Assembly (NCBI GenBank): GCA_964440565.1
Contig: CAYTTB010000004.1
Span: 33,260 to 97,259, forward strand
Direction of reading: 5' to 3'
Length of the DNA stretch: 64,000 bases
Source: an uncultured Thermoanaerobaculia bacterium
Lineage (GTDB): Bacteria > Acidobacteriota > Thermoanaerobaculia > Thermoanaerobaculales > Sulfomarinibacteraceae
Shown here: one piece after another, positions 3,559-42,426 of the stretch
Numbering within the stretch: the stretch's first letter is position 1
How the letters are laid out: each line of letters starts with the position of its first letter
Program-made: the position numbers and the translations under genes
Notes under the pieces: generated by a model
Seen by the model: only the letters and a program-made list of their open reading frames with translations
What the model was told of the DNA's origin: nothing
The model's database searches: none

Positions 3559-4716
3559 ATGAGCTCCGCAGTCACCCGGACATTGCACGTGGTGGGCGCC
3601 GGCCCGGCCGGGCTCGCCGCGGCCATCACCGCCGCACGGGCGGGAGCCCGGGTCGTGGTCCACGAGGCGGCGGACAGGGTCGGGCACCGGTTCTCCGGCG
3701 ACTTCCAGGGGCTCGAGAACTGGACGTCGGCCACCGACGTGCTCGAGGTCCTCCGCTCCGCCGGGATCGTGGGCACGTTCGACCACGTCCCGTGCCGGGC
3801 GGTCACCGTCTGGGATCCGTTCGGACGGGAGCACACGATTCGCTCGGAGCTCCCTCTCTACTACCTGGTCCGGCGCGGCCCGGACCCCGGGACGCTGGAC
3901 AGCGGCCTCCTCCGGCAGGCGCGCGCCCTGGGCGTCGAGGTGCGCTTCGGGGAGCGCGTGGACCACCTGCCCGAAGGCGGCATCGTGGCCACCGGACCGC
4001 GGGCCGTCGACGCAGTGGCGGTGGGCTACGTGTTCGAGACCGACGCCTCCGACGGCTCGTGGGCCGTCATCGACCCCGAGCTCGCACCCGGCGGCTACGC
4101 CTACCTCCTCGTCCAGGGTGGACGTGCGACCCTGGCCACCTGCATGTTCGCCGACTTCCACCGCGAGCGGGAGCTCCTCGAACGCACCGCGGCCTTCTTC
4201 GCCTCGCGCACGGGGATCGAGCCGCGACGCGCCCGGAAATTCTCCGGTTTCGGGAACTTCGAGCTGCCCGCGAGTGCCCGCCGCGGGAGCCTGCTGCTCG
4301 TCGGCGAGGCCGCCGGATTCCAGGACACCCTCTGGGGGTTCGGCCTCCGCTACGCCATGCTCTCGGGCTGGCTCGCCGCCCGCGCCGCCGTCCGCGGCCG
4401 GCCCGAGGAGTACGACGTCGCGTGGCGCCGCCGGTTCGCCGGGGCGATGCGCGCGGCGGCCGTGAACCGGTACCTGTACGAGCGGGCGGGCCCACGCGCC
4501 CTGGGGTGGTTCCTACGGCGCGGCGTCGCGGCCCGCGACCCGAGAGGATGGATGCGCCGCCACTACGCGCCCTCCCTCTGGAAGACCGCGCTGTACCCCG
4601 TGGTGGGCCGCAACGTCGCGAGCCGCAGGCGACACCGGGAATGCGCGAGGCCCGGTTGTGACTGCACATGGTGCAGGTGTCAGGCACACGGCGGGGCGCC
4701 GGTACGGGAGGCGTGA
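3559..4716 (+). CDS. FAD-dependent oxidoreductase (geranylgeranyl-reductase-like) with Cys-rich C-terminal tail
   Basis: Internal ATG of ORF 3364..4716. Dinucleotide-binding motif VVGAGPAGLAAAITAARAGARVVVHE. Later LLVGEAAGFQD. Tail ends RECARPGCDCTWCRCQAHG. Confidence 0.75.
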   Translation: MSSAVTRTLHVVGAGPAGLAAAITAARAGARVVVHEAADRVGHRFSGDFQGLENWTSATDVLEVLRSAGIVGTFDHVPCRAVTVWDPFGREHTIRSELPLYYLVRRGPDPGTLDSGLLRQARALGVEVRFGERVDHLPEGGIVATGPRAVDAVAVGYVFETDASDGSWAVIDPELAPGGYAYLLVQGGRATLATCMFADFHRERELLERTAAFFASRTGIEPRRARKFSGFGNFELPASARRGSLLLVGEAAGFQDTLWGFGLRYAMLSGWLAARAAVRGRPEEYDVAWRRRFAGAMRAAAVNRYLYERAGPRALGWFLRRGVAARDPRGWMRRHYAPSLWKTALYPVVGRNVASRRRHRECARPGCDCTWCRCQAHGGAPVREA

Positions 4717-35164: not shown

Positions 35165-36109
35165 TTGAGCAGGACGATGCGGCCGATCCTCGACATCCGC
35201 AGCGCGAAGGTGGCGGTGGAGCTCACCAGCCGCTGCAACATGCGCTGTCCCATGTGCCCGATGGAGAACCTCCGCCGGCCGGAGACGGACATGCCGTGGG
35301 AGCTGGTGGAGCGCGTGGCGGCACAGTTCGCCGAGCACGGGATCCGGGTGCGCTGGCTGCACGAGATGGGGGAGCCGCTGCTCTACCCGCGCCTCGCGGA
35401 CGCGATCGAGCTGTTCCCGGGGTGCTCCGTCTCCACCAACGCCATGCTCCTCGACGAGGAGCGTGGCCGCGAGCTCCTCGCCACCTCGCTCCGGCGGATC
35501 CGGCTGTGCCTCGACACCGTCAACCCCGGGCTCTACCCGCGGATCCGCCGCGGCGGGGTGTGGGAGCGCACCGTCGCCAACATCCGGGGGTTCCTGGAGC
35601 TGTCCCGCGGCCACGAGATCCGGGTCGAGATCCAGCGGATGGTGACGCTCAGGACCTTCCACGAGACGGTGGAGGACTTCCGGCGGCTGTTCGACCTCGA
35701 CCGCTATCCCCAGGCGGTGGTGATCGAGAAGACCTGCGAGGGGCTGGACACCTCCGACGCCACCGACCTCCACGAGGCCTACTACGGGTGCTTCCAGGGG
35801 TACCCGTTCCGCTGGTTCGTGGTCCTGGCGGACGGCCGCGTCACGCACTGTTGCTACGACGCCCACGGCGAGCAGACCATCGGCGATCTCACCACCCAGA
35901 CGGTGGAGGAGATCCTGGCCTCCCCCGTCCTCGAGCGGTACATGCGCGCGTTCCGGGCCAGGGACTGGGAGACGCTGCCGCGGTGCGGGGAGTGCTTCCG
36001 GAACCCTTCCGGTCGGGCGGTGGCGATGGACCGGCTGGTGCGCCTCGGGCGCCGTCTCGAGCGGGTGCTCCCGGTGACACACGTGGCCCGCAGGCTCATC
36101 AACCGCTGA
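35165..36109 (+). CDS. radical SAM protein with SPASM/twitch-like C-terminal Cys cluster
   Basis: VELTSRCNMRCPMCP (CxxxCxxC), HEMGEPLLYP, C-terminal HCCYDAHGEQTIGDL...LPRCGECF. Start is TTG 35165 or ATG 35177. Confidence 0.8.
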   Translation: MSRTMRPILDIRSAKVAVELTSRCNMRCPMCPMENLRRPETDMPWELVERVAAQFAEHGIRVRWLHEMGEPLLYPRLADAIELFPGCSVSTNAMLLDEERGRELLATSLRRIRLCLDTVNPGLYPRIRRGGVWERTVANIRGFLELSRGHEIRVEIQRMVTLRTFHETVEDFRRLFDLDRYPQAVVIEKTCEGLDTSDATDLHEAYYGCFQGYPFRWFVVLADGRVTHCCYDAHGEQTIGDLTTQTVEEILASPVLERYMRAFRARDWETLPRCGECFRNPSGRAVAMDRLVRLGRRLERVLPVTHVARRLINR

Positions 36110-36119
36110 GGGGGACGAC

Positions 36120-36911
36120 GTGGGGCGCGCCGAGTGGGGTGCCGACCCGGAGTTCTTCGGGCCGCGCCACGCCTTCCGCGAGCGGCTGATCCTCGCCGCG
36201 CTCGGGAACGTCCCCTCCCGCGGCCCCCACCTCGAGTGCGCCGCCGGCGTGGGCTCGCTCTCCCTCGAGCTGGCCCGGCGCGGCGGCCGGGTGGTGGCCG
36301 CGGACCGCTCCCTGCGTTCCCTCGCGGTCCTGCGAGCCCGGGCCCGCGCCGCCCGGCTTGGCGAGCGCGTCATGCCGGTGGTGGCGGACATCACCGCGCT
36401 GCCGTTCCGCGGGGGGGCCTTCGCCTCCGCCACCTCCGCCGAGACGCTGGAGCACATCCCCGACGACGTCCGGGCGGCCGCGGAGCTCGCCCGCGTGCTG
36501 CGGCCAGGCGGGACCCTCGCCGGCACCGTGCCGGCCGACCCCGGCCAGTGGTCGGCGTGGGACGACTGGGCCGGGCACCTCAGGCGCTACACGCGGCGCG
36601 GCCTGGAGCGTCTCCTCGCCGGCGCCGGGCTCGCGCCCCGGGTCCGCACCTGGGGCTGGCCCCTCGTGCGCCTCTACGACGCGCTCTTCCTGCGGCGGGT
36701 GAACCGGCGCCGCCTCGAGAGCGATCTACCGGTGGAGCGCGACCCGAGGCTGTCCGCGGTCCAGCGCCTGGGCCGTGCGCGGTGGCTGGTGCGCGCCGTC
36801 AGTGCGGCGTTCTCGCTCGACCGGCTGGCGCTCGGCGCGCCGTGGGGCGTGGGCCTGCTGTTCGTGGCCACCAGGGAGGGGGCGCCGCGGGAACCGGCCA
36901 GCGGGCGGTGA
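36120..36911 (+). CDS. class I SAM-dependent methyltransferase
   Basis: LECAAGVGSLSLELARRGGRVVAADRS (motif I), AETLEHIPDD, LRPGGTLAGTVP. Confidence 0.8.
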   Translation: MGRAEWGADPEFFGPRHAFRERLILAALGNVPSRGPHLECAAGVGSLSLELARRGGRVVAADRSLRSLAVLRARARAARLGERVMPVVADITALPFRGGAFASATSAETLEHIPDDVRAAAELARVLRPGGTLAGTVPADPGQWSAWDDWAGHLRRYTRRGLERLLAGAGLAPRVRTWGWPLVRLYDALFLRRVNRRRLESDLPVERDPRLSAVQRLGRARWLVRAVSAAFSLDRLALGAPWGVGLLFVATREGAPREPASGR

Positions 36912-38406
36912 GCGACCGCCCCCAGGCGTCGGTGAGGACCAGCCTGAGCTCGTACCCCCGGGAGGGATCCGCCCCGCCCCAGGAGCCGAGCTCGCCCCCC
37001 TCCACTGGCTCCGCCCCCTCGCCCAGGACGGCCCCCACCCTCGCCCCCGTCGGCACCGCCTCGAGGCGCCAGCGCCCACCGGAGGCCGGCGACCCGGGGG
37101 CTCCGTACAGCCCCGCCCAGCCGAGCAGCGTCACGCGCTGGCCCGGTCCCGGAGGGACCGCCGGTGGCGGGGCCAGGGCGGCGAGGCCGATCACGCCCTG
37201 GCCGAGCGCCTCGATCCGCGAGCCGACCTCGCTCTGGGCGATCAGTATCCGCGCCCGGTCGTAGGCTCCGAACCGGGTCCAGAGCCCCTCCGGGTCCTGC
37301 GGGTACGGAAGGGCCCGGCTCGCCTCGAGCACCAGCGTGCCGTCGCCGGTGGCCTGCACGTCGCAGGTGAAGGTGGACCCGCGCACCGCCGCCCACCCCC
37401 CGTCCTGGACCCCGAAGTACCCCCCCGACCCGTCCACGGTGGTGTCGGCCATGTCCAGCCGCGCACGCTCCATGACGATGACCTCGCCGAGCAGGCAGTC
37501 CCGCACCCGGACCCGGGCGTCGGCCTGCGGGTACAGGTTCCAGGTGTCGATGGTGGCGTTCTCCAGCACCAGCCGGCGGTCGGGGAGCGCCAGCTCCCGG
37601 TGAGCCACGGTCTCGCCGTCGCGGAGGCCCTCGATCTCGGTCGAGGTGGGCAGGTGCAGCCCCACCACCATCCACTGCTCGGGCGGGATGTCGCGCAGCG
37701 TCAGGTCGCTGCCCGCGCGGACCAGGAGCGGCCACAGCGTGACCTGGCAGCGGCGCATCTCGATCCGCTCGGGAATCCCCTCGGACCCCGGTGGCGGGAA
37801 GCTCCACCGCTCCACGAACCCGGGCAGCGGCGGGCTGTACACCGCGCGGCTCCCCGCGGGAAACTCCGGCCACACCCACAGCTCGCCCTCGCCACCCTCG
37901 CGCGGGATGTCCTCGAGCACCATCGTGGCGGCGTCCTGGACGATGCACTCGAACTGGCCGGAAAGCCGCCGCGCCTCGAGCCGTGAGGTGTCCATGGCCA
38001 GGAGCTGGGCGAAGCCGAACCCCGTGTCCTCGACGGTGAGGACGCCATCACCGCCCGCGATGAGCGCGTGCTGGACCCCGGAGGGGACGCGGTAGTCGCA
38101 GCGGCGCACCTCGACCGTGCCCCCGTACCAGGCCACCAGCGAGTACTGACCGTGGTACCGGCTCTCGAACTCGATCACCGAGTCCTCGAGCACGATCCGT
38201 CCGCCGGAGAGGGCGTAGACGCTTCCGGAGAACCGGACCCCCGGCTCGCCGACGCCCACGACCCTGAGCTCGCCGTCGCCGATCACCATCACCTCGCCGA
38301 GGTCGGTCGGCTCGGTGATGGTGAGGGGCCCGGTGACCACCAGCGGCTCCTGTGCGGCGGCCACGGCGGCGCAGGCGAGCACGGCGGCAAGCGCGGCGCG
38401 GGTCAC
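36799..38406 (-). CDS. secreted hypothetical protein, beta-helix-like repetitive fold suspected
   Basis: GTG 38406 after GGGAGAA. Signal peptide VTRAALAAVLACAAVAAAQEP. Recurring short beta-strand/turn pattern (VLEDS.IEF, VLTVEDTGF, LVLENATID). No named family recognised. The 3' end overlaps the convergent methyltransferase gene by 113 nt. Confidence 0.5.
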   Translation of the reverse strand: MTRAALAAVLACAAVAAAQEPLVVTGPLTITEPTDLGEVMVIGDGELRVVGVGEPGVRFSGSVYALSGGRIVLEDSVIEFESRYHGQYSLVAWYGGTVEVRRCDYRVPSGVQHALIAGGDGVLTVEDTGFGFAQLLAMDTSRLEARRLSGQFECIVQDAATMVLEDIPREGGEGELWVWPEFPAGSRAVYSPPLPGFVERWSFPPPGSEGIPERIEMRRCQVTLWPLLVRAGSDLTLRDIPPEQWMVVGLHLPTSTEIEGLRDGETVAHRELALPDRRLVLENATIDTWNLYPQADARVRVRDCLLGEVIVMERARLDMADTTVDGSGGYFGVQDGGWAAVRGSTFTCDVQATGDGTLVLEASRALPYPQDPEGLWTRFGAYDRARILIAQSEVGSRIEALGQGVIGLAALAPPPAVPPGPGQRVTLLGWAGLYGAPGSPASGGRWRLEAVPTGARVGAVLGEGAEPVEGGELGSWGGADPSRGYELRLVLTDAWGRSLTARWPVPAAPPPWWPRTAGPRPTARRAPAGRARTPH

Positions 38407-38676
38407 GCTCCCATTCTCCCGCCGCCCGGGGCGCGGCGCAAACGGGCCCCGGTCCGCACCGGGCCCGAGGCTCCGGCGCCCGCGTCCGGGGATCGTCTCC
38501 CCGCGGCGGGGAGGGCCCGCCCGCCGCGCGCGCCGGGCCGCCCGACCTCCGGCGAGCAGGGAGCCGCCCGCCGCGCGGGCGGGAGGCGCCGCGGCGCTCG
38601 CCGCGAGCGGAGGAAGCCCCCTCCCGCCGCGCCCGGCCTCGCCCGCTCGGGTACGGCGTGCCCCCCGATCGTCCCG

Positions 38677-38759
38677 CGAAGACTGTCCCCATCTCGGCGC
38701 CCGGCGAAGACTGTCCCCATCTCGGCGATCGTCCGACGAAGACTGTCCCCATCTCGGCG
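38677..38759 (+). repeat. three identical tandem copies of the 23-nt motif CGAAGACTGTCCCCATCTCGGCG (38677-38699, 38705-38727, 38737-38759); degenerate 4th copy near 38770
   Basis: Counted base by base. Offsets are 28 and 32 nt. Lies in the 500-nt intergenic region upstream of the DoxX gene. Confidence 0.9.
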
Positions 38760-38905
38760 CCCCGACCGGGAGTGTCCCCGGTTCATCCGGCGGTGGAGGG
38801 TGTCGCCGGCGCGCGGGCGGCGGCCGTCGCGAATGAAACGCGATCCCGGTTCCACGCATACCAGCCAGCGAGCACCGCGCCTCTCCGGCGCCACGGGAGA
38901 CACCC

Positions 38906-39406
38906 ATGAATCCGTACCGCACGCTCCGGACCGCCGCCGAACGCCTCCGCGGCCTCGCCCGCCGCCTCGCCTGGCTCGCCCCGCTCGCCACCCGCATCGT
39001 TCTGGGGCTCGCCTTCGTCCAGGCAGGGCTCGGCAAGTTCCAGCACTTCGATGGAACGGTCCGGTACTTCTCGAGCCTGGGGATACCGGTCGCCACGTTC
39101 AGCGCCGGCCTCGTGGCGACGATGGAGCTCGTGGGGGGCGCGGCCCTCCTCGCGGGGTTCCTCTCGCGCCTCATGGCCTCCTGCCTGGCCGTGACCATGA
39201 TCGTGGCCCTGCTCACCGCCGAGGGCGACGCCTTCCTCCGTTCCTGGAGCCCAGGGGCCGACATCGCCCCCAGCGACGTCCTGCCGTTCCGTTTCCTGCT
39301 CCTCCTCGCCTGGGTGGCGCTCTACGGCCCCGGGACGGCGAGCCTCGACGCGCTGCTGGCGCGATGGCGGGGCCGGGGTGTAACCGGGGCCGCCCCTCCG
39401 GCATAG
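38906..39406 (+). CDS. DoxX-family membrane protein
   Basis: 166 aa. LAPLATRIVLGLAFVQAGLGKF...ATMELVGGAALLAGFLSRL. Four TMs. Confidence 0.85.
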   Translation: MNPYRTLRTAAERLRGLARRLAWLAPLATRIVLGLAFVQAGLGKFQHFDGTVRYFSSLGIPVATFSAGLVATMELVGGAALLAGFLSRLMASCLAVTMIVALLTAEGDAFLRSWSPGADIAPSDVLPFRFLLLLAWVALYGPGTASLDALLARWRGRGVTGAAPPA

Positions 39407-39483
39407 TCGCGGTCAGTGCGCATGAGATTCATACTCAACCTGTGGCCCCACCGGCCACGCGACCGCGAGAGGGAGAGGCATCC

Positions 39484-39945
39484 ATGAAGAGTTCACGCAT
39501 GAAGGACGTCCTGATCCGCACCGCCATGGCCGGCATGCTCGCCGGGGCCGGGCTGGCCGTCCCCGCCGGCGCCCACGCCGACCCGGCCCCCGCCGCACGC
39601 AACGGATGCGGCGGGAAGGACGGCTGCGGCAGCCAGAGCCAGAAGCGGGGCGAGAGGAGCGCGGAGGTCCACGTCTGCCGGGGCCTCAACTCGTGCCGGG
39701 GGAAGGGCAACTGCAGGTCCGGCGACAACGGCTGCGCCGGCAAGAACTCCTGCAAGGGCAAGGGTGGCTGCGCCAGCGCCGAGGCCCGTCACGCGTGCAA
39801 GGGCCAGAACGCGTGCAAGGGGCTCGGCGGGTGCAGGAGCGGTGACAACGGCTGCGCCGGCAAGAACTCCTGCAAGGGCAAGGGTGGCTGCGCGGTGCCG
39901 CTGCACAGGCCCCCGCAGAAGGACGGCGAGAAGAAGGCGGCGTGA
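39484..39945 (+). CDS. Sec-signal Cys-rich RiPP precursor, bufferin-like (two 6-Cys modules; 14 Cys total)
   Basis: ATG 39484 is 5 nt after GAGAGGGAGAGG (last 153 aa of the artefactual ORF 38068..39945). Signal peptide [33 protein letters not shown]. Core modules [32 protein letters not shown] and [32 protein letters not shown]. Immediately upstream of DUF692 and DUF2063 genes. Confidence 0.8.
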
Positions 39946-39955
39946 GGCAGGGGAC

Positions 39956-39992
39956 GGCTGGCGGGCCGGTGACCTCGCCCGGCCCGCCGGCT
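39956..39992 (+). terminator. strong stem-loop between precursor and MNIO genes (core GGCGGGCCGG-N9-CCGGCCCGCC), candidate intra-operon attenuator
   Basis: The 10-bp perfect GC stem at 39960-39969/39979-39988 extends to about 14 bp with G-U pairs. It starts 11 nt after the precursor stop and ends 24 nt before the next start. Confidence 0.45.
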
Positions 39993-40016
39993 CCCCGGTC
40001 CGGAAGGAGGGCAGGG

Positions 40017-40865
40017 ATGGGCACGCCCAACCGATGGGGTTTCCCGGACCTCGGGCTCGGCCTCGGGCTCAGGACGGTGCACTTCGACGAGATCCTGGAG
40101 CGCCGGCCGGAGCTCGGGTTCTTCGAGATCCTCACCGAGAACTTCCTGGACACCGGAGGCCGCCCCGCCGCGGTCCTCGACGCCGTGGCCGCCACCTACC
40201 CGGTGGTGCTGCACGGGGTCTCCATGTCCGTCGGCTCCACCGACCCGCTCGACCTCGAGTACCTGCGCAAGGTGAAGGCGCTGGCCGAGCGGACCGGAGC
40301 GCTGTGGGTCTCGGACCACGTCTGCTGGACGGGAGTGATGGGGCGCAACACCCACGACCTGCTGCCGCTGCCGTACACCGAGGAGGTCCTGCGGCACGTC
40401 GTGGAGCGGGTCCGGCTGGTGCAGGACGTCCTCGAGCGCCCTCTGGTGCTCGAGAACCCGTCCACCTACCTGGAGTTCGCGCACTCCGAGATGCCCGAGT
40501 GGGAGTTCGTCGCGCGGCTCGCCGAGGAGGCGGACTGCGGTCTGCTCCTCGACGTCAACAACGTCTTCGTGAGCGCCTTCAACCACGGCTTCGACCCCCG
40601 TGCCTACATCGAGGCGATTCCGGGCGAGCGGGTCTGTCAGTACCACCTCGCGGGCCACACCCACAAGGGGACCCACATCCTGGACACCCATGACGATCAC
40701 GTGGTGGAGCCGGTGTGGGAGCTGTACGGCCACACGCTGCGGCACGTGGGCCTGCGGGCGACCCTGCTCGAATGGGACGCGGACATCCCTCCCCTGTCCA
40801 CCTGCATCGCGGAGGTGCGCAAGGCGCTTTCCTGGCGCGAGCGGGAGGTGTCCCGTGCCGCCTGA
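40017..40865 (+). CDS. DUF692 / MNIO-family (MbnB/BufB-like multinuclear non-heme iron oxidase)
   Basis: ATG 40017 after GGAAGGAGG. Family hallmarks: [88 protein letters not shown]. Confidence 0.9.
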
Positions 40866-41688
40866 GTCACTCTCCCTGGAGCGCGTGCAGCGCTGGCTGC
40901 AGTCCGTGATCGTGCATCCCGGCGGCGTCGAGGAGGCGCTGGCCTCGCCCGAGGCGGCGGCCGACCTCCCGCCCGAGGCGCTGCCCGAGGTGGTCCGCCC
41001 CTCCTGGAGCCTCGACCCCCGCGAGCGGGTGGGCATCTACCACGGCATGTACCTGCTGCGGATGATCGAGGCGCTCGAGGCCGACTTCCCCGTCATCCGC
41101 CACCGTCTCGGAGCGGACGCCTTCGCCGACCTCGTCGCCGCCTACGTCGCCGAGTACCCGTCCCGGAGCTACACCCTGAACCGTCTGGGCGATCGCCTGC
41201 CCGAGTTCCTCGACGCGCATCCGGAGATCCCCGACCACGCCTCCCTCGCGGACCTCGCCAGGTTCGAGCTCGCCGTCACCCAGGTGTTCGACGAGGAGGA
41301 GACCCCCTCCCTCGCCGCGGAGCACCTCGCCGATCTGCCCCCGGAGAGCTGGCCGGAGCTCCGCCTCCGCCCCGTCGCGGCCTTCCGCCTGCTCGCGCTC
41401 CGGCACGCGGTCCTCCCCGACCTGGAGGCGTACCACGAGGACAGGCCGCCGCCGGCGCCGCGCCGCCGGGCCACGTTCCTCGCGGTGTACCGCCGCGCCT
41501 TCCGGGTGTACCACCTCGCGCTCTCCCGCCCCGAGCACGAGCTGCTCGCGGCCCTCGCCCGCGGCGCGCCCCTCGGGGAGGCGCTCGCCACCGCCGCCTC
41601 GCGCCTCCCGGCCGGGCGGCGCGAGGGGAAGGTCTTCGCCTGGTTCCGGAGCTGGGTCGCGGCGGGCCTGTTCCGGGCCCCGGCCTGA
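40855..41688 (+). CDS. DUF2063-domain protein (MNIO partner, BufC/MbnC-like role)
   Basis: GTG 40855 overlaps the MNIO gene by 11 nt. N-terminus [17 protein letters not shown]...[62 protein letters not shown] is the DUF2063 pattern. Confidence 0.8.
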
Positions 41689-41697
41689 GCGAGCCGC

Positions 41698-42426
41698 TCA
41701 GAACCGGAGGGCCGCGCTCAGGAACGCCGCGGTGGCCGAGCCGCGCCTGAGCTCGGCGCGGAGGCCGAGCAGCGGCAGACGCAGCGCGACCCCCACCGCG
41801 GCCACCGCCGTCGTCGCCTCGACCCGGTGGCGGAGGGGGTCCGGATCGCCCCAGCTGGCCTCGGCCTCCCACCGCCGGACGCCCAGGGCGCCGTAGGGAA
41901 CCAGCGGGCCCACGCCCTTGGAGACCGTCACCGTCACCGAGGTGGTGGTCAGGTCCACCGGTCCCGACCCGAGCTCCGACCACGCTGCACGCAGGCCGAC
42001 GGCGGGCACCAGCGTCGAGCCGCGGACCAGCGCCACGCGCCCCTCGAGGCCGTGGAACGTCTCCCCCGCGACCGACCCCACCGAGGCGCCCACGTCGAGC
42101 CCCAGCGGCAGCCCCTTGCGGACCGCCACCCGCACCCCCGCCAGGCCGCCGGCGGCGCGGCTCGCCCCCTCGAGGGTGCGCCGCCACCAGGGCGCGTCAC
42201 GGTCGCCACCCACCCACACCGCGCCCGCGTCCACCTCGAGGCCCATGACCCCCAGCGCCCGCGAGGGCCCGGCGGGCGGCGCGATGGCCTCGGCCAGGTG
42301 CTCCGCGAGCTCGCGAAACTCGCCCGGGCTCAGCGCCGGATCGAGGTGGAGGTCGCCCGCGTGCGCCCAGCCCGATCCCGCGACGATCGCCGCCACAACC
42401 GACAATGCCAGCACCCGTTCACGCAT
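41698..42426 (-). CDS. putative outer-membrane beta-barrel protein
   Basis: Signal peptide MRERVLALSVVAAIVAGSGWAHA. Alternating beta pattern. C-terminal ...AAFLSAALRF (terminal Phe). Overlaps the upstream GGDEF-EAL gene by 8 nt. Confidence 0.5.
   Translation of the reverse strand: MRERVLALSVVAAIVAGSGWAHAGDLHLDPALSPGEFRELAEHLAEAIAPPAGPSRALGVMGLEVDAGAVWVGGDRDAPWWRRTLEGASRAAGGLAGVRVAVRKGLPLGLDVGASVGSVAGETFHGLEGRVALVRGSTLVPAVGLRAAWSELGSGPVDLTTTSVTVTVSKGVGPLVPYGALGVRRWEAEASWGDPDPLRHRVEATTAVAAVGVALRLPLLGLRAELRRGSATAAFLSAALRF

Follow-up and report, generated by a model that had tools for sequence, protein, structure and literature searches.

A divergent Buf2-type bufferin precursor with two tandem modules, and the probable causes of the near-identity of their second halves at the DNA level

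An open reading frame (ORF) that begins at the ATG at 39484 and whose stop codon ends at 39945, as an earlier note on this DNA had delimited it, is very likely the precursor (BufA) of a Buf2-type bufferin with an ancient tandem-duplicated core, in which the DNA identity of the second halves stems mainly from an invariant peptide and GC3 codon bias. The locus is a doxX-bufA-bufB(MNIO)-bufC(DUF2063) Buf2 bufferin operon (Table 1), located in a 64-kb window, by which we mean the whole stretch of DNA that was analysed. The ORF sequence is new and fairly divergent within a known, recently characterised RiPP family, whose bufferin nature, architecture of duplicated domains and probable role in copper buffering have been described before; the BUF_6/12Cys family was named by Leprevost et al., and its 12-Cys forms are duplicated 6-Cys-containing domains (PMC11626156; Microb Genom 2025, PMC12452194). 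The earlier note had read the ORF as the precursor of a secreted modified peptide (RiPP) with a signal peptide, and this reading is upheld by the match to the NCBIfam model NF050166 and by the neighbouring bufB and bufC genes, confirming that such a precursor is recognisable from raw sequence by a first-stage reader.

Table 1. Features of the buf locus, in coordinates of the 64-kb window
Feature	Start	End	Strand	Remarks
doxX (bufD-like) membrane protein gene	38906	39406	+	First in cluster; Pfam DoxX PF07681, 75.7 bits
Shine-Dalgarno-like GAGAGGGAGAGG	39468	39479	+	4 nt upstream of bufA ATG; read from sequence
bufA, Buf2 (BUF_6/12Cys) bufferin precursor	39484	39945	+	153 aa, 14 Cys; NF050166 match
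Predicted Sec-type signal peptide	39484	39579	+	32 residues, predicted cleavage after AHA; by inspection
Extra N-terminal C-x5-C (CGGKDGC)	39607	39627	+	Cys at residues 42 and 48
Module 1, 40 codons	39661	39780	+	A1 39676-39714, linker RSGDNG 39715-39732, B1 39733-39771
53-nt stretch, first copy	39721	39773	+	52/53 identity to second copy
Module 2, 40 codons	39781	39900	+	A2 39796-39834, linker RSGDNG 39835-39852, B2 39853-39891
53-nt stretch, second copy	39841	39893	+	Perfect run 39844-39893
GC-rich hairpin, bufA-bufB spacer	39950	39996	+	Inverted repeat; RNA fold -46.4 kcal/mol, z = -2.0 vs shuffles
bufB, MNIO (DUF692) bufferin maturase	40017	40865	+	NCBIfam NF050167 MNIO_BufB 357.7 bits, cutoff 310
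bufC, DUF2063 / RRE-type partner protein	40855	41688	+	Pfam PF09836 70.2 bits, cutoff 27.2

NF050166 (BufA2 family periplasmic bufferin-type metallophore) is the sole NCBIfam match of the ORF, covering two stretches with E = 1.1e-12 and a score of 48 bits, which lies below the curated cutoff of 60 bits; sibling 12-Cys proteins score 54-90 bits against the same model, that is, on either side of the cutoff. Each module on its own also matches NF050166 (32.8 and 28.2 bits), in agreement with the earlier description of the core as an internal duplication of two 6-Cys modules, and all 12 module Cys form invariant columns in an alignment of 48 sequences. A Pfam search yielded no significant family for the precursor, with DUF7640 reaching just 11.8 bits and no DUF2282 match in the ORF, and when the precursor alignment was run as a profile against the sequences in PDB, no relative turned up. 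AlphaFold2 prediction of the mature core from the 48-sequence alignment produced an unusable model (pLDDT 45.9, pTM 0.19) and thus did not confirm the two small folded domains, each with a CysI-CysVI disulfide, that are expected of 12-Cys forms. In total, 847 protein homologues were found, and two modules are present in 110 of the 120 best-scoring ones. The best homologue is 65-69% identical to the ORF, no closer relative of the source organism than this was present in protein or genome collections, and no other Cys-repeat ORF of the bufA type lies within the 64-kb window.

The N-terminus of the ORF aligns with the N-termini of its homologues, and inspection of the predicted signal peptide revealed a basic n-region (MKSSRMK), a hydrophobic core and an A-x-A motif (AHA, followed by D). 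The segment GCGGKDGC, which the earlier note had placed just after the signal peptide, is present with both of its Cys, and among close homologues the number of Cys in this extra motif ranges from 1 to 3 (1, 2 or 3 in P0001-P0006, P0009, P0011, P0023 and P0024). Within the motif, a 6-residue indel (KDGCGS) distinguishes P0001 from P0004. The extra C-x5-C resembles a partial repeat unit that is degenerate or still evolving.

The first gene of the operon, doxX, encodes a product that scores 66 bits against the NCBIfam model for the HvfX family Cu-binding RiPP maturation protein, below its cutoff of 80 bits; in L001-L004, the closest relatives, doxX likewise precedes bufA. The bufB product matches Pfam PF05114 with 359.5 bits, and its conserved HG / DH / EN / DxxN / HxxGH / DTH / E-D metal-site motifs align with those of the 3BWW and MbnB structures. 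The same protein scores 261 bits against the HvfB model, below the cutoff of that model, and only weakly against the MbnB model (63 bits against a cutoff of 325). The bufC product additionally matches NGO1945_C (23 bits) and, below cutoff, NCBIfam HvfC (50.7 bits); the gene probably starts with the GTG at 40855, overlapping the bufB stop codon. The order bufA-bufB-bufC is kept in 67 of 80 related loci.

Between bufA and bufB lie 71 nt of spacer, measured from stop to start codon, which contain the hairpin listed in Table 1; no T-tract terminator was found there. The hairpin could adjust how much precursor transcript is present relative to that of the enzyme, or it could make the bufA mRNA more stable. 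Scans of 38700-41900 for sigma-70 promoters and intrinsic terminators gave no match and are uninformative at such GC content, and genes for a sigma or anti-sigma factor were not found beside the operon. On the opposite strand, an ORF of 242 aa (41698-42426, - strand) whose N-terminus resembles a signal sequence converges on the end of bufC and has no Pfam or NCBIfam match. Farther upstream, a gene for a radical SAM/SPASM protein (35165-36109) is directly followed by one for a class I methyltransferase (36120-36911), and the two could represent another peptide- or cofactor-maturation pair; no link of this pair to the buf operon was seen. Long overlapping ORFs occur in all frames of 38068-39945; one of these ORFs runs for 625 aa from stop to stop and takes in bufA. 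Such ORFs are artefacts of the 74.7% GC content, and only frames with GC3 > 0.85 are gene-like.

Direct comparison of the two 53-nt stretches, offset by a period of 120 nt (40 codons), reproduced the near-identity that had first drawn attention to this gene, with 52 of 53 positions identical, the sole mismatch at 39723 (GGC versus GGT) and a perfect run of 50 nt (39724-39773 = 39844-39893). Self-alignment by repeat search placed this run within a whole module pair of 104 nt with 83% identity (39670-39773 / 39790-39893), and the repeat is clearly homologous, not a product of chance; Tandem Repeats Finder (TRF) reported no period-120 tandem repeat because there are just two copies and half of each has diverged. 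The shared peptide that the earlier note had assigned to the 53 nt is real as regards its identity and differs in extent: the 53 nt encode 17 residues plus 2 nt of an Ala codon, the Ser preceding GDNG falls outside them (TCC in one copy, AGC in the other), and the peptide identical in both modules is 20 aa long. Similarly, the spacing of the Cys, previously given as C-x3-4-C-x5-C, is C-x5-C-x5-C-x6-C-x5-C-x5-C in each module.

For codon-level comparison, each module was divided into a first half A (13 codons), a linker L (6 codons), a second half B (13 codons) and an inter-module linker. Over the 40 aligned codons, modules 1 and 2 have 25 identical codons, 12 replacements and 3 synonymous differences. 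The 12 replaced codons account for 26 nucleotide differences, many with 2-3 per codon, and the 3 synonymous differences flank the edges of the 50-nt run, within or adjoining the "identical" half. The first halves have indeed diverged, as had been noted before, with 7 of 13 amino acids and 26 of 39 nucleotides identical between A1 and A2 (about 62% identity for the first halves as a whole), and this divergence consists wholly of amino-acid replacements, with 0 synonymous differences at the 8 conserved codons.

Several lines of evidence point to the invariant peptide and codon bias as the main source of the matching second halves. Across phyla, the peptide encoded by the second half hardly varies in either module; among 61 two-module genes, B1 and B2 are 94% identical in amino acids and 91% identical in nucleotides within a gene. 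The window gene has a GC3 of 0.94, and the 64-kb window is 74.7% GC. Such extreme bias would leave almost one preferred DNA spelling of the invariant peptide, and the first halves would differ solely by module-specific amino-acid replacements. In the 39-nt B stretch, the two modules are identical at 39/39 positions in 5 of the 60 other two-module genes and at 38/39 positions in 19 more, so that DNA identity of this level is not unusual in the family. Furthermore, among genes with GC3 of at least 0.9, 18.6% of the pairs of segments that come from different genomes and encode the same peptide differ at no more than one of 51 nt. As we read these data, the second halves are near-identical in DNA mainly because both copies encode one invariant peptide under extreme GC3 bias.

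The earlier note had taken the mosaic of near-identity and divergence within one small gene to indicate recent partial gene conversion or slippage, or else very strong nucleotide-level constraint. In that form the interpretation is not supported: the diverged half is itself devoid of synonymous differences at its 8 conserved codons, and the mosaic therefore reflects constraint at the protein level rather than age. By the same token (0/8), synonymous identity says little about age in a gene with a GC3 of 0.94.

Codon bias alone, naively modelled, is nevertheless not a full explanation of the identity, since 16 consecutive identical codons have a probability of P = 3e-4 under the genome-wide codon usage of the window, and a within-gene permutation gave p = 0.005. 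Both copies also share the minor Gly codon GGT, which makes up 8% of Gly codons genome-wide, and this shared codon points to shared history or conversion. The strongest competing explanation, and the main idea of the earlier note, makes recent conversion of a short tract between the second halves, some 50-55 nt with 39723 and 39774 as its limits, chiefly responsible for the near-identity in this gene; we consider it doubtful. It is favoured by the two probabilities just given, by the occurrence of GGT at one same position in both copies and by the synonymous differences that flank the tract on both sides. However, the window's own two copies are identical at 50/51 positions, and segments of ten unrelated genomes resemble module 1 at least as closely: the 51-nt segment of module 1 is 51/51 identical to module 2 of one of them (L019) and 50/51 identical to nine segments elsewhere (Planctomycetota, Steroidobacteraceae, Terriglobia and others). 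The exact 50-nt string, GGT included, is likewise found in single-module genes, which have no partner copy (L082, L083), and in one module only of two two-module genes (L081 and L019). A scan of metagenome contigs for this string returned only three, all from unrelated organisms. The unconverted first half lacks synonymous divergence as well, and "recent" cannot be dated. The statistical case for the window gene depends on the null and on one informative site (GGT), with p = 0.005 for codons pooled over the gene, 0.15 for a pool limited to B and about 0.19 when the null is the empirical distribution between genomes.

At the level of the family, the signal of conversion is clearer. The 61 two-module genes, drawn from 80 genomic loci, were parsed into A, L, B and inter-module linker, codons were shuffled among positions with the same amino acid within each gene, and the observed position-matched codon identity was compared with the expected one. 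When the pool included all gene regions, identity was in excess in B (609 observed versus 540 expected, z = 7.2) and in L+B (z = 8.5) and matched expectation in A (466 versus 471, z = -0.6). Restricting the pool to the region tested gave z = 4.5 for B, 7.3 for L+B and 0.5 for A, and thinning this region-only set to 33 lineages gave z = 3.3, 4.8 and 1.2, respectively. Position-specific codon preference was rejected as the cause of this excess, because codon identity between genomes is 0.736 at the same position versus 0.756 at different positions, leaving no preference able to mimic it. Consistent with conversion, mismatches are about half as numerous in pairs within a gene as in pairs from different genomes, and lineage-specific minor codons are common to both modules of a gene in L027, L030, L031 and L052, including two sister genomes whose minor codons differ and are each the same in both modules (GGT/GGT in L027, GGA/GGA in L030). 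More broadly, both modules share AAT, TCT, GGT versus GGA in sister genomes, or AAA-GGA...GGA in the genes L023-L030, L014-L016, L031 and L052.

The presence of the same minor codon in both modules, differing between close genomes, is a classical signature of concerted evolution, and the codon patterns of the 61 genes indicate that intragenic conversion between second halves operates family-wide, to a modest degree. The suggestion of partial conversion in the earlier note is thus partly upheld for the second halves across the family and, for the window gene alone, is sensitive to the choice of null. In the window gene, conversion may have erased the few synonymous differences that were left, and it is not needed to explain the pattern. 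A broader scenario, which we regard as evenly balanced, is that recurrent short-tract conversion is confined to the L+B half, which protein constraint keeps similar, that the A halves are independent module-specific determinants, and that the same tracts were the substrate from which modules were lost or gained (forms with 1, 2 or 3 modules) and from which one relative acquired its frameshifted allele.

Module number itself varies among the relatives. Three-module (18-Cys) precursors were observed in L034 (~4208-4543) and P0007, and several loci carry two bufA-like genes (L037, L042, L046 and L060 among them); the family is thus flexible in how many modules and gene copies it has. In one close homologue, P0009, encoded on a 934-kb contig, the linker and second half of module 2 lie in the +1 frame owing to a frameshift within the repeat, which reflects an error of sequencing or else marks a pseudogene generated by slippage.

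The invariant peptide and codon bias mainly account for the second halves, and the first halves bear on the age of the duplication. Within a close clade of 14 members, consisting of the window and 13 Acidobacteriota genomes (Thermoanaerobaculia, Vicinamibacteria and Holophagae), the identity of A1 to A1 and of A2 to A2 across species is 0.83, whereas that of A1 to A2 is only 0.65-0.68, and A1 ends in GNC and A2 in GGC in 14 of 14 members each. The first-half differences are module-specific and kept in class-level relatives; therefore, the tandem duplication of the 40-residue module is ancient, and recent slippage, which the earlier note had entertained, is excluded. Comparison with orthologues, the check proposed there, showed an excess of codon identity limited to the second halves across the family, and it showed the duplication to be old, with the A halves grouping by module position.

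A recent duplication or replication slippage that made both modules, with subsequent fast divergence of the first halves, is very improbable. The occurrence of 1, 2 and 3 modules in the family indicates that module gain and loss happens, and the absence of synonymous differences from the first half would fit a young repeat; yet the A1 ending (...GNC) and the A2 ending (...LGGC) are kept across relatives from three classes, A1 resembles its orthologues (0.83) more than the A2 of its own gene (0.68), and the replaced codons often differ at 2-3 positions (26 differences in 12 codons). Recent whole-module duplication was rejected, the first halves being orthologous by module position.

Equally remote is the strong nucleotide-level constraint raised in the earlier note, in which an mRNA structure, a regulatory RNA target or a DNA motif would hold both 50-nt stretches identical: the limitation of the codon-identity excess to one module half would suit it, but the mRNA of the modules folds no better than shuffled sequences (z = -0.78), on which ground RNA-structure constraint on the two modules was rejected, the stretches are direct and not inverted repeats and thus cannot pair with each other, synonymous variants are freely tolerated across relatives, and same-position codon identity between genomes does not exceed that at different positions.

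The locus adds one more divergent 12-Cys (here 14-Cys) Buf2 operon, from a very GC-rich genome that probably belongs to an uncultured acidobacterium, and carries a caution that near-identical repeat DNA can come from an invariant peptide combined with GC3 bias. Mildly new is the statistical evidence for within-gene concerted evolution limited to the invariant half of bufferin modules.

The bufferins of Caulobacter are Sec-exported RiPPs whose Cys are converted to 5-thiooxazoles by BufB and BufC (Leprevost et al. PNAS 2024, PMC11626156), and these thiooxazoles bind periplasmic copper and protect against copper stress (PMC11626156). In Buf2, CysI and CysVI are unmodified, probably forming a disulfide, and each of the four central Cys has lost 4 Da (PMC11626156). 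From Buf1 and Buf2 of C. vibrioides, the only members in which Cys conversion, copper binding and copper induction are known (PMC11626156), we infer the thiooxazole chemistry, copper binding and regulation of the window operon. By this analogy, BufB, an MNIO iron enzyme, together with BufC would in each module make 5-thiooxazoles of the four central Cys, and the first and sixth Cys would form a disulfide. The peptide would be exported by Sec and cleaved by signal peptidase after AHA, and the resulting periplasmic product of roughly 121 residues, with 8 heterocycles, 2 disulfides and probably two copper sites, would sequester excess copper. The proposal of the earlier note that the Cys are modification or metal-ligand sites fits such a role, given the copper-binding 5-thiooxazoles formed from Cys in the Buf2 family (PMC11626156).

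In the first half of module 1 (39676-39720), the window gene encodes CRG, CRG and CRS, at positions where 57-59 of 61 relatives have Cys-Lys. The substrate Lys has been proposed to contact an Asp of BufB2 (2026 paper, PMC13097082). The Arg substitutions may matter for recognition by BufB, or they may reflect the 74.7% GC content (AAG to CGG/AGG).

Among known systems, the window ORF is closest to the 12-Cys Buf2 precursors, with which it shares the Sec signal peptide, two tandem 6-Cys domains with the family motif, and the neighbouring MNIO bufB, DUF2063 bufC and doxX genes. It differs from them by the extra N-terminal C-x5-C, which brings the total to 14 Cys, by Cys-Arg in module 1 where the family has Cys-Lys, and by the location of doxX upstream rather than downstream. 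The characterised 6-Cys founder, Caulobacter vibrioides BufA2/Buf2 (CCNA_03001), belongs to the same family (NF050166) and is served by the same enzyme pair, but has one module versus two in the window gene and an operon without doxX; furthermore, C. vibrioides Buf2 is regulated by SigF, whereas beside the window operon neither a sigma nor an anti-sigma gene was found. BufA1/DUF2282 bufferins (Buf1) are alike in their MNIO and DUF2063 proteins, often DoxX, Sec signal peptide and thiooxazole copper ligands, but have four Cys and belong to a different sequence family (PF10048). The oxazolin/fontiphorin "captophorins" (PMC11252979, PMC13097082) similarly derive from repetitive Cys precursors, are modified by an HvfB-type MNIO and HvfC, and bind copper; their precursors form a different family, built of EGKCG Lys-Cys 5-mer repeats in place of the Cys-Lys 6-residue units arranged in 6-Cys domains in the window. 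Methanobactin (MbnA/MbnB/MbnC) resembles the system proposed here in that an MNIO acts on Cys of a ribosomal peptide to yield a copper chelator, whereas it has a short leader-core precursor, dedicated export, oxazolone-thioamide chemistry and a role in copper acquisition.
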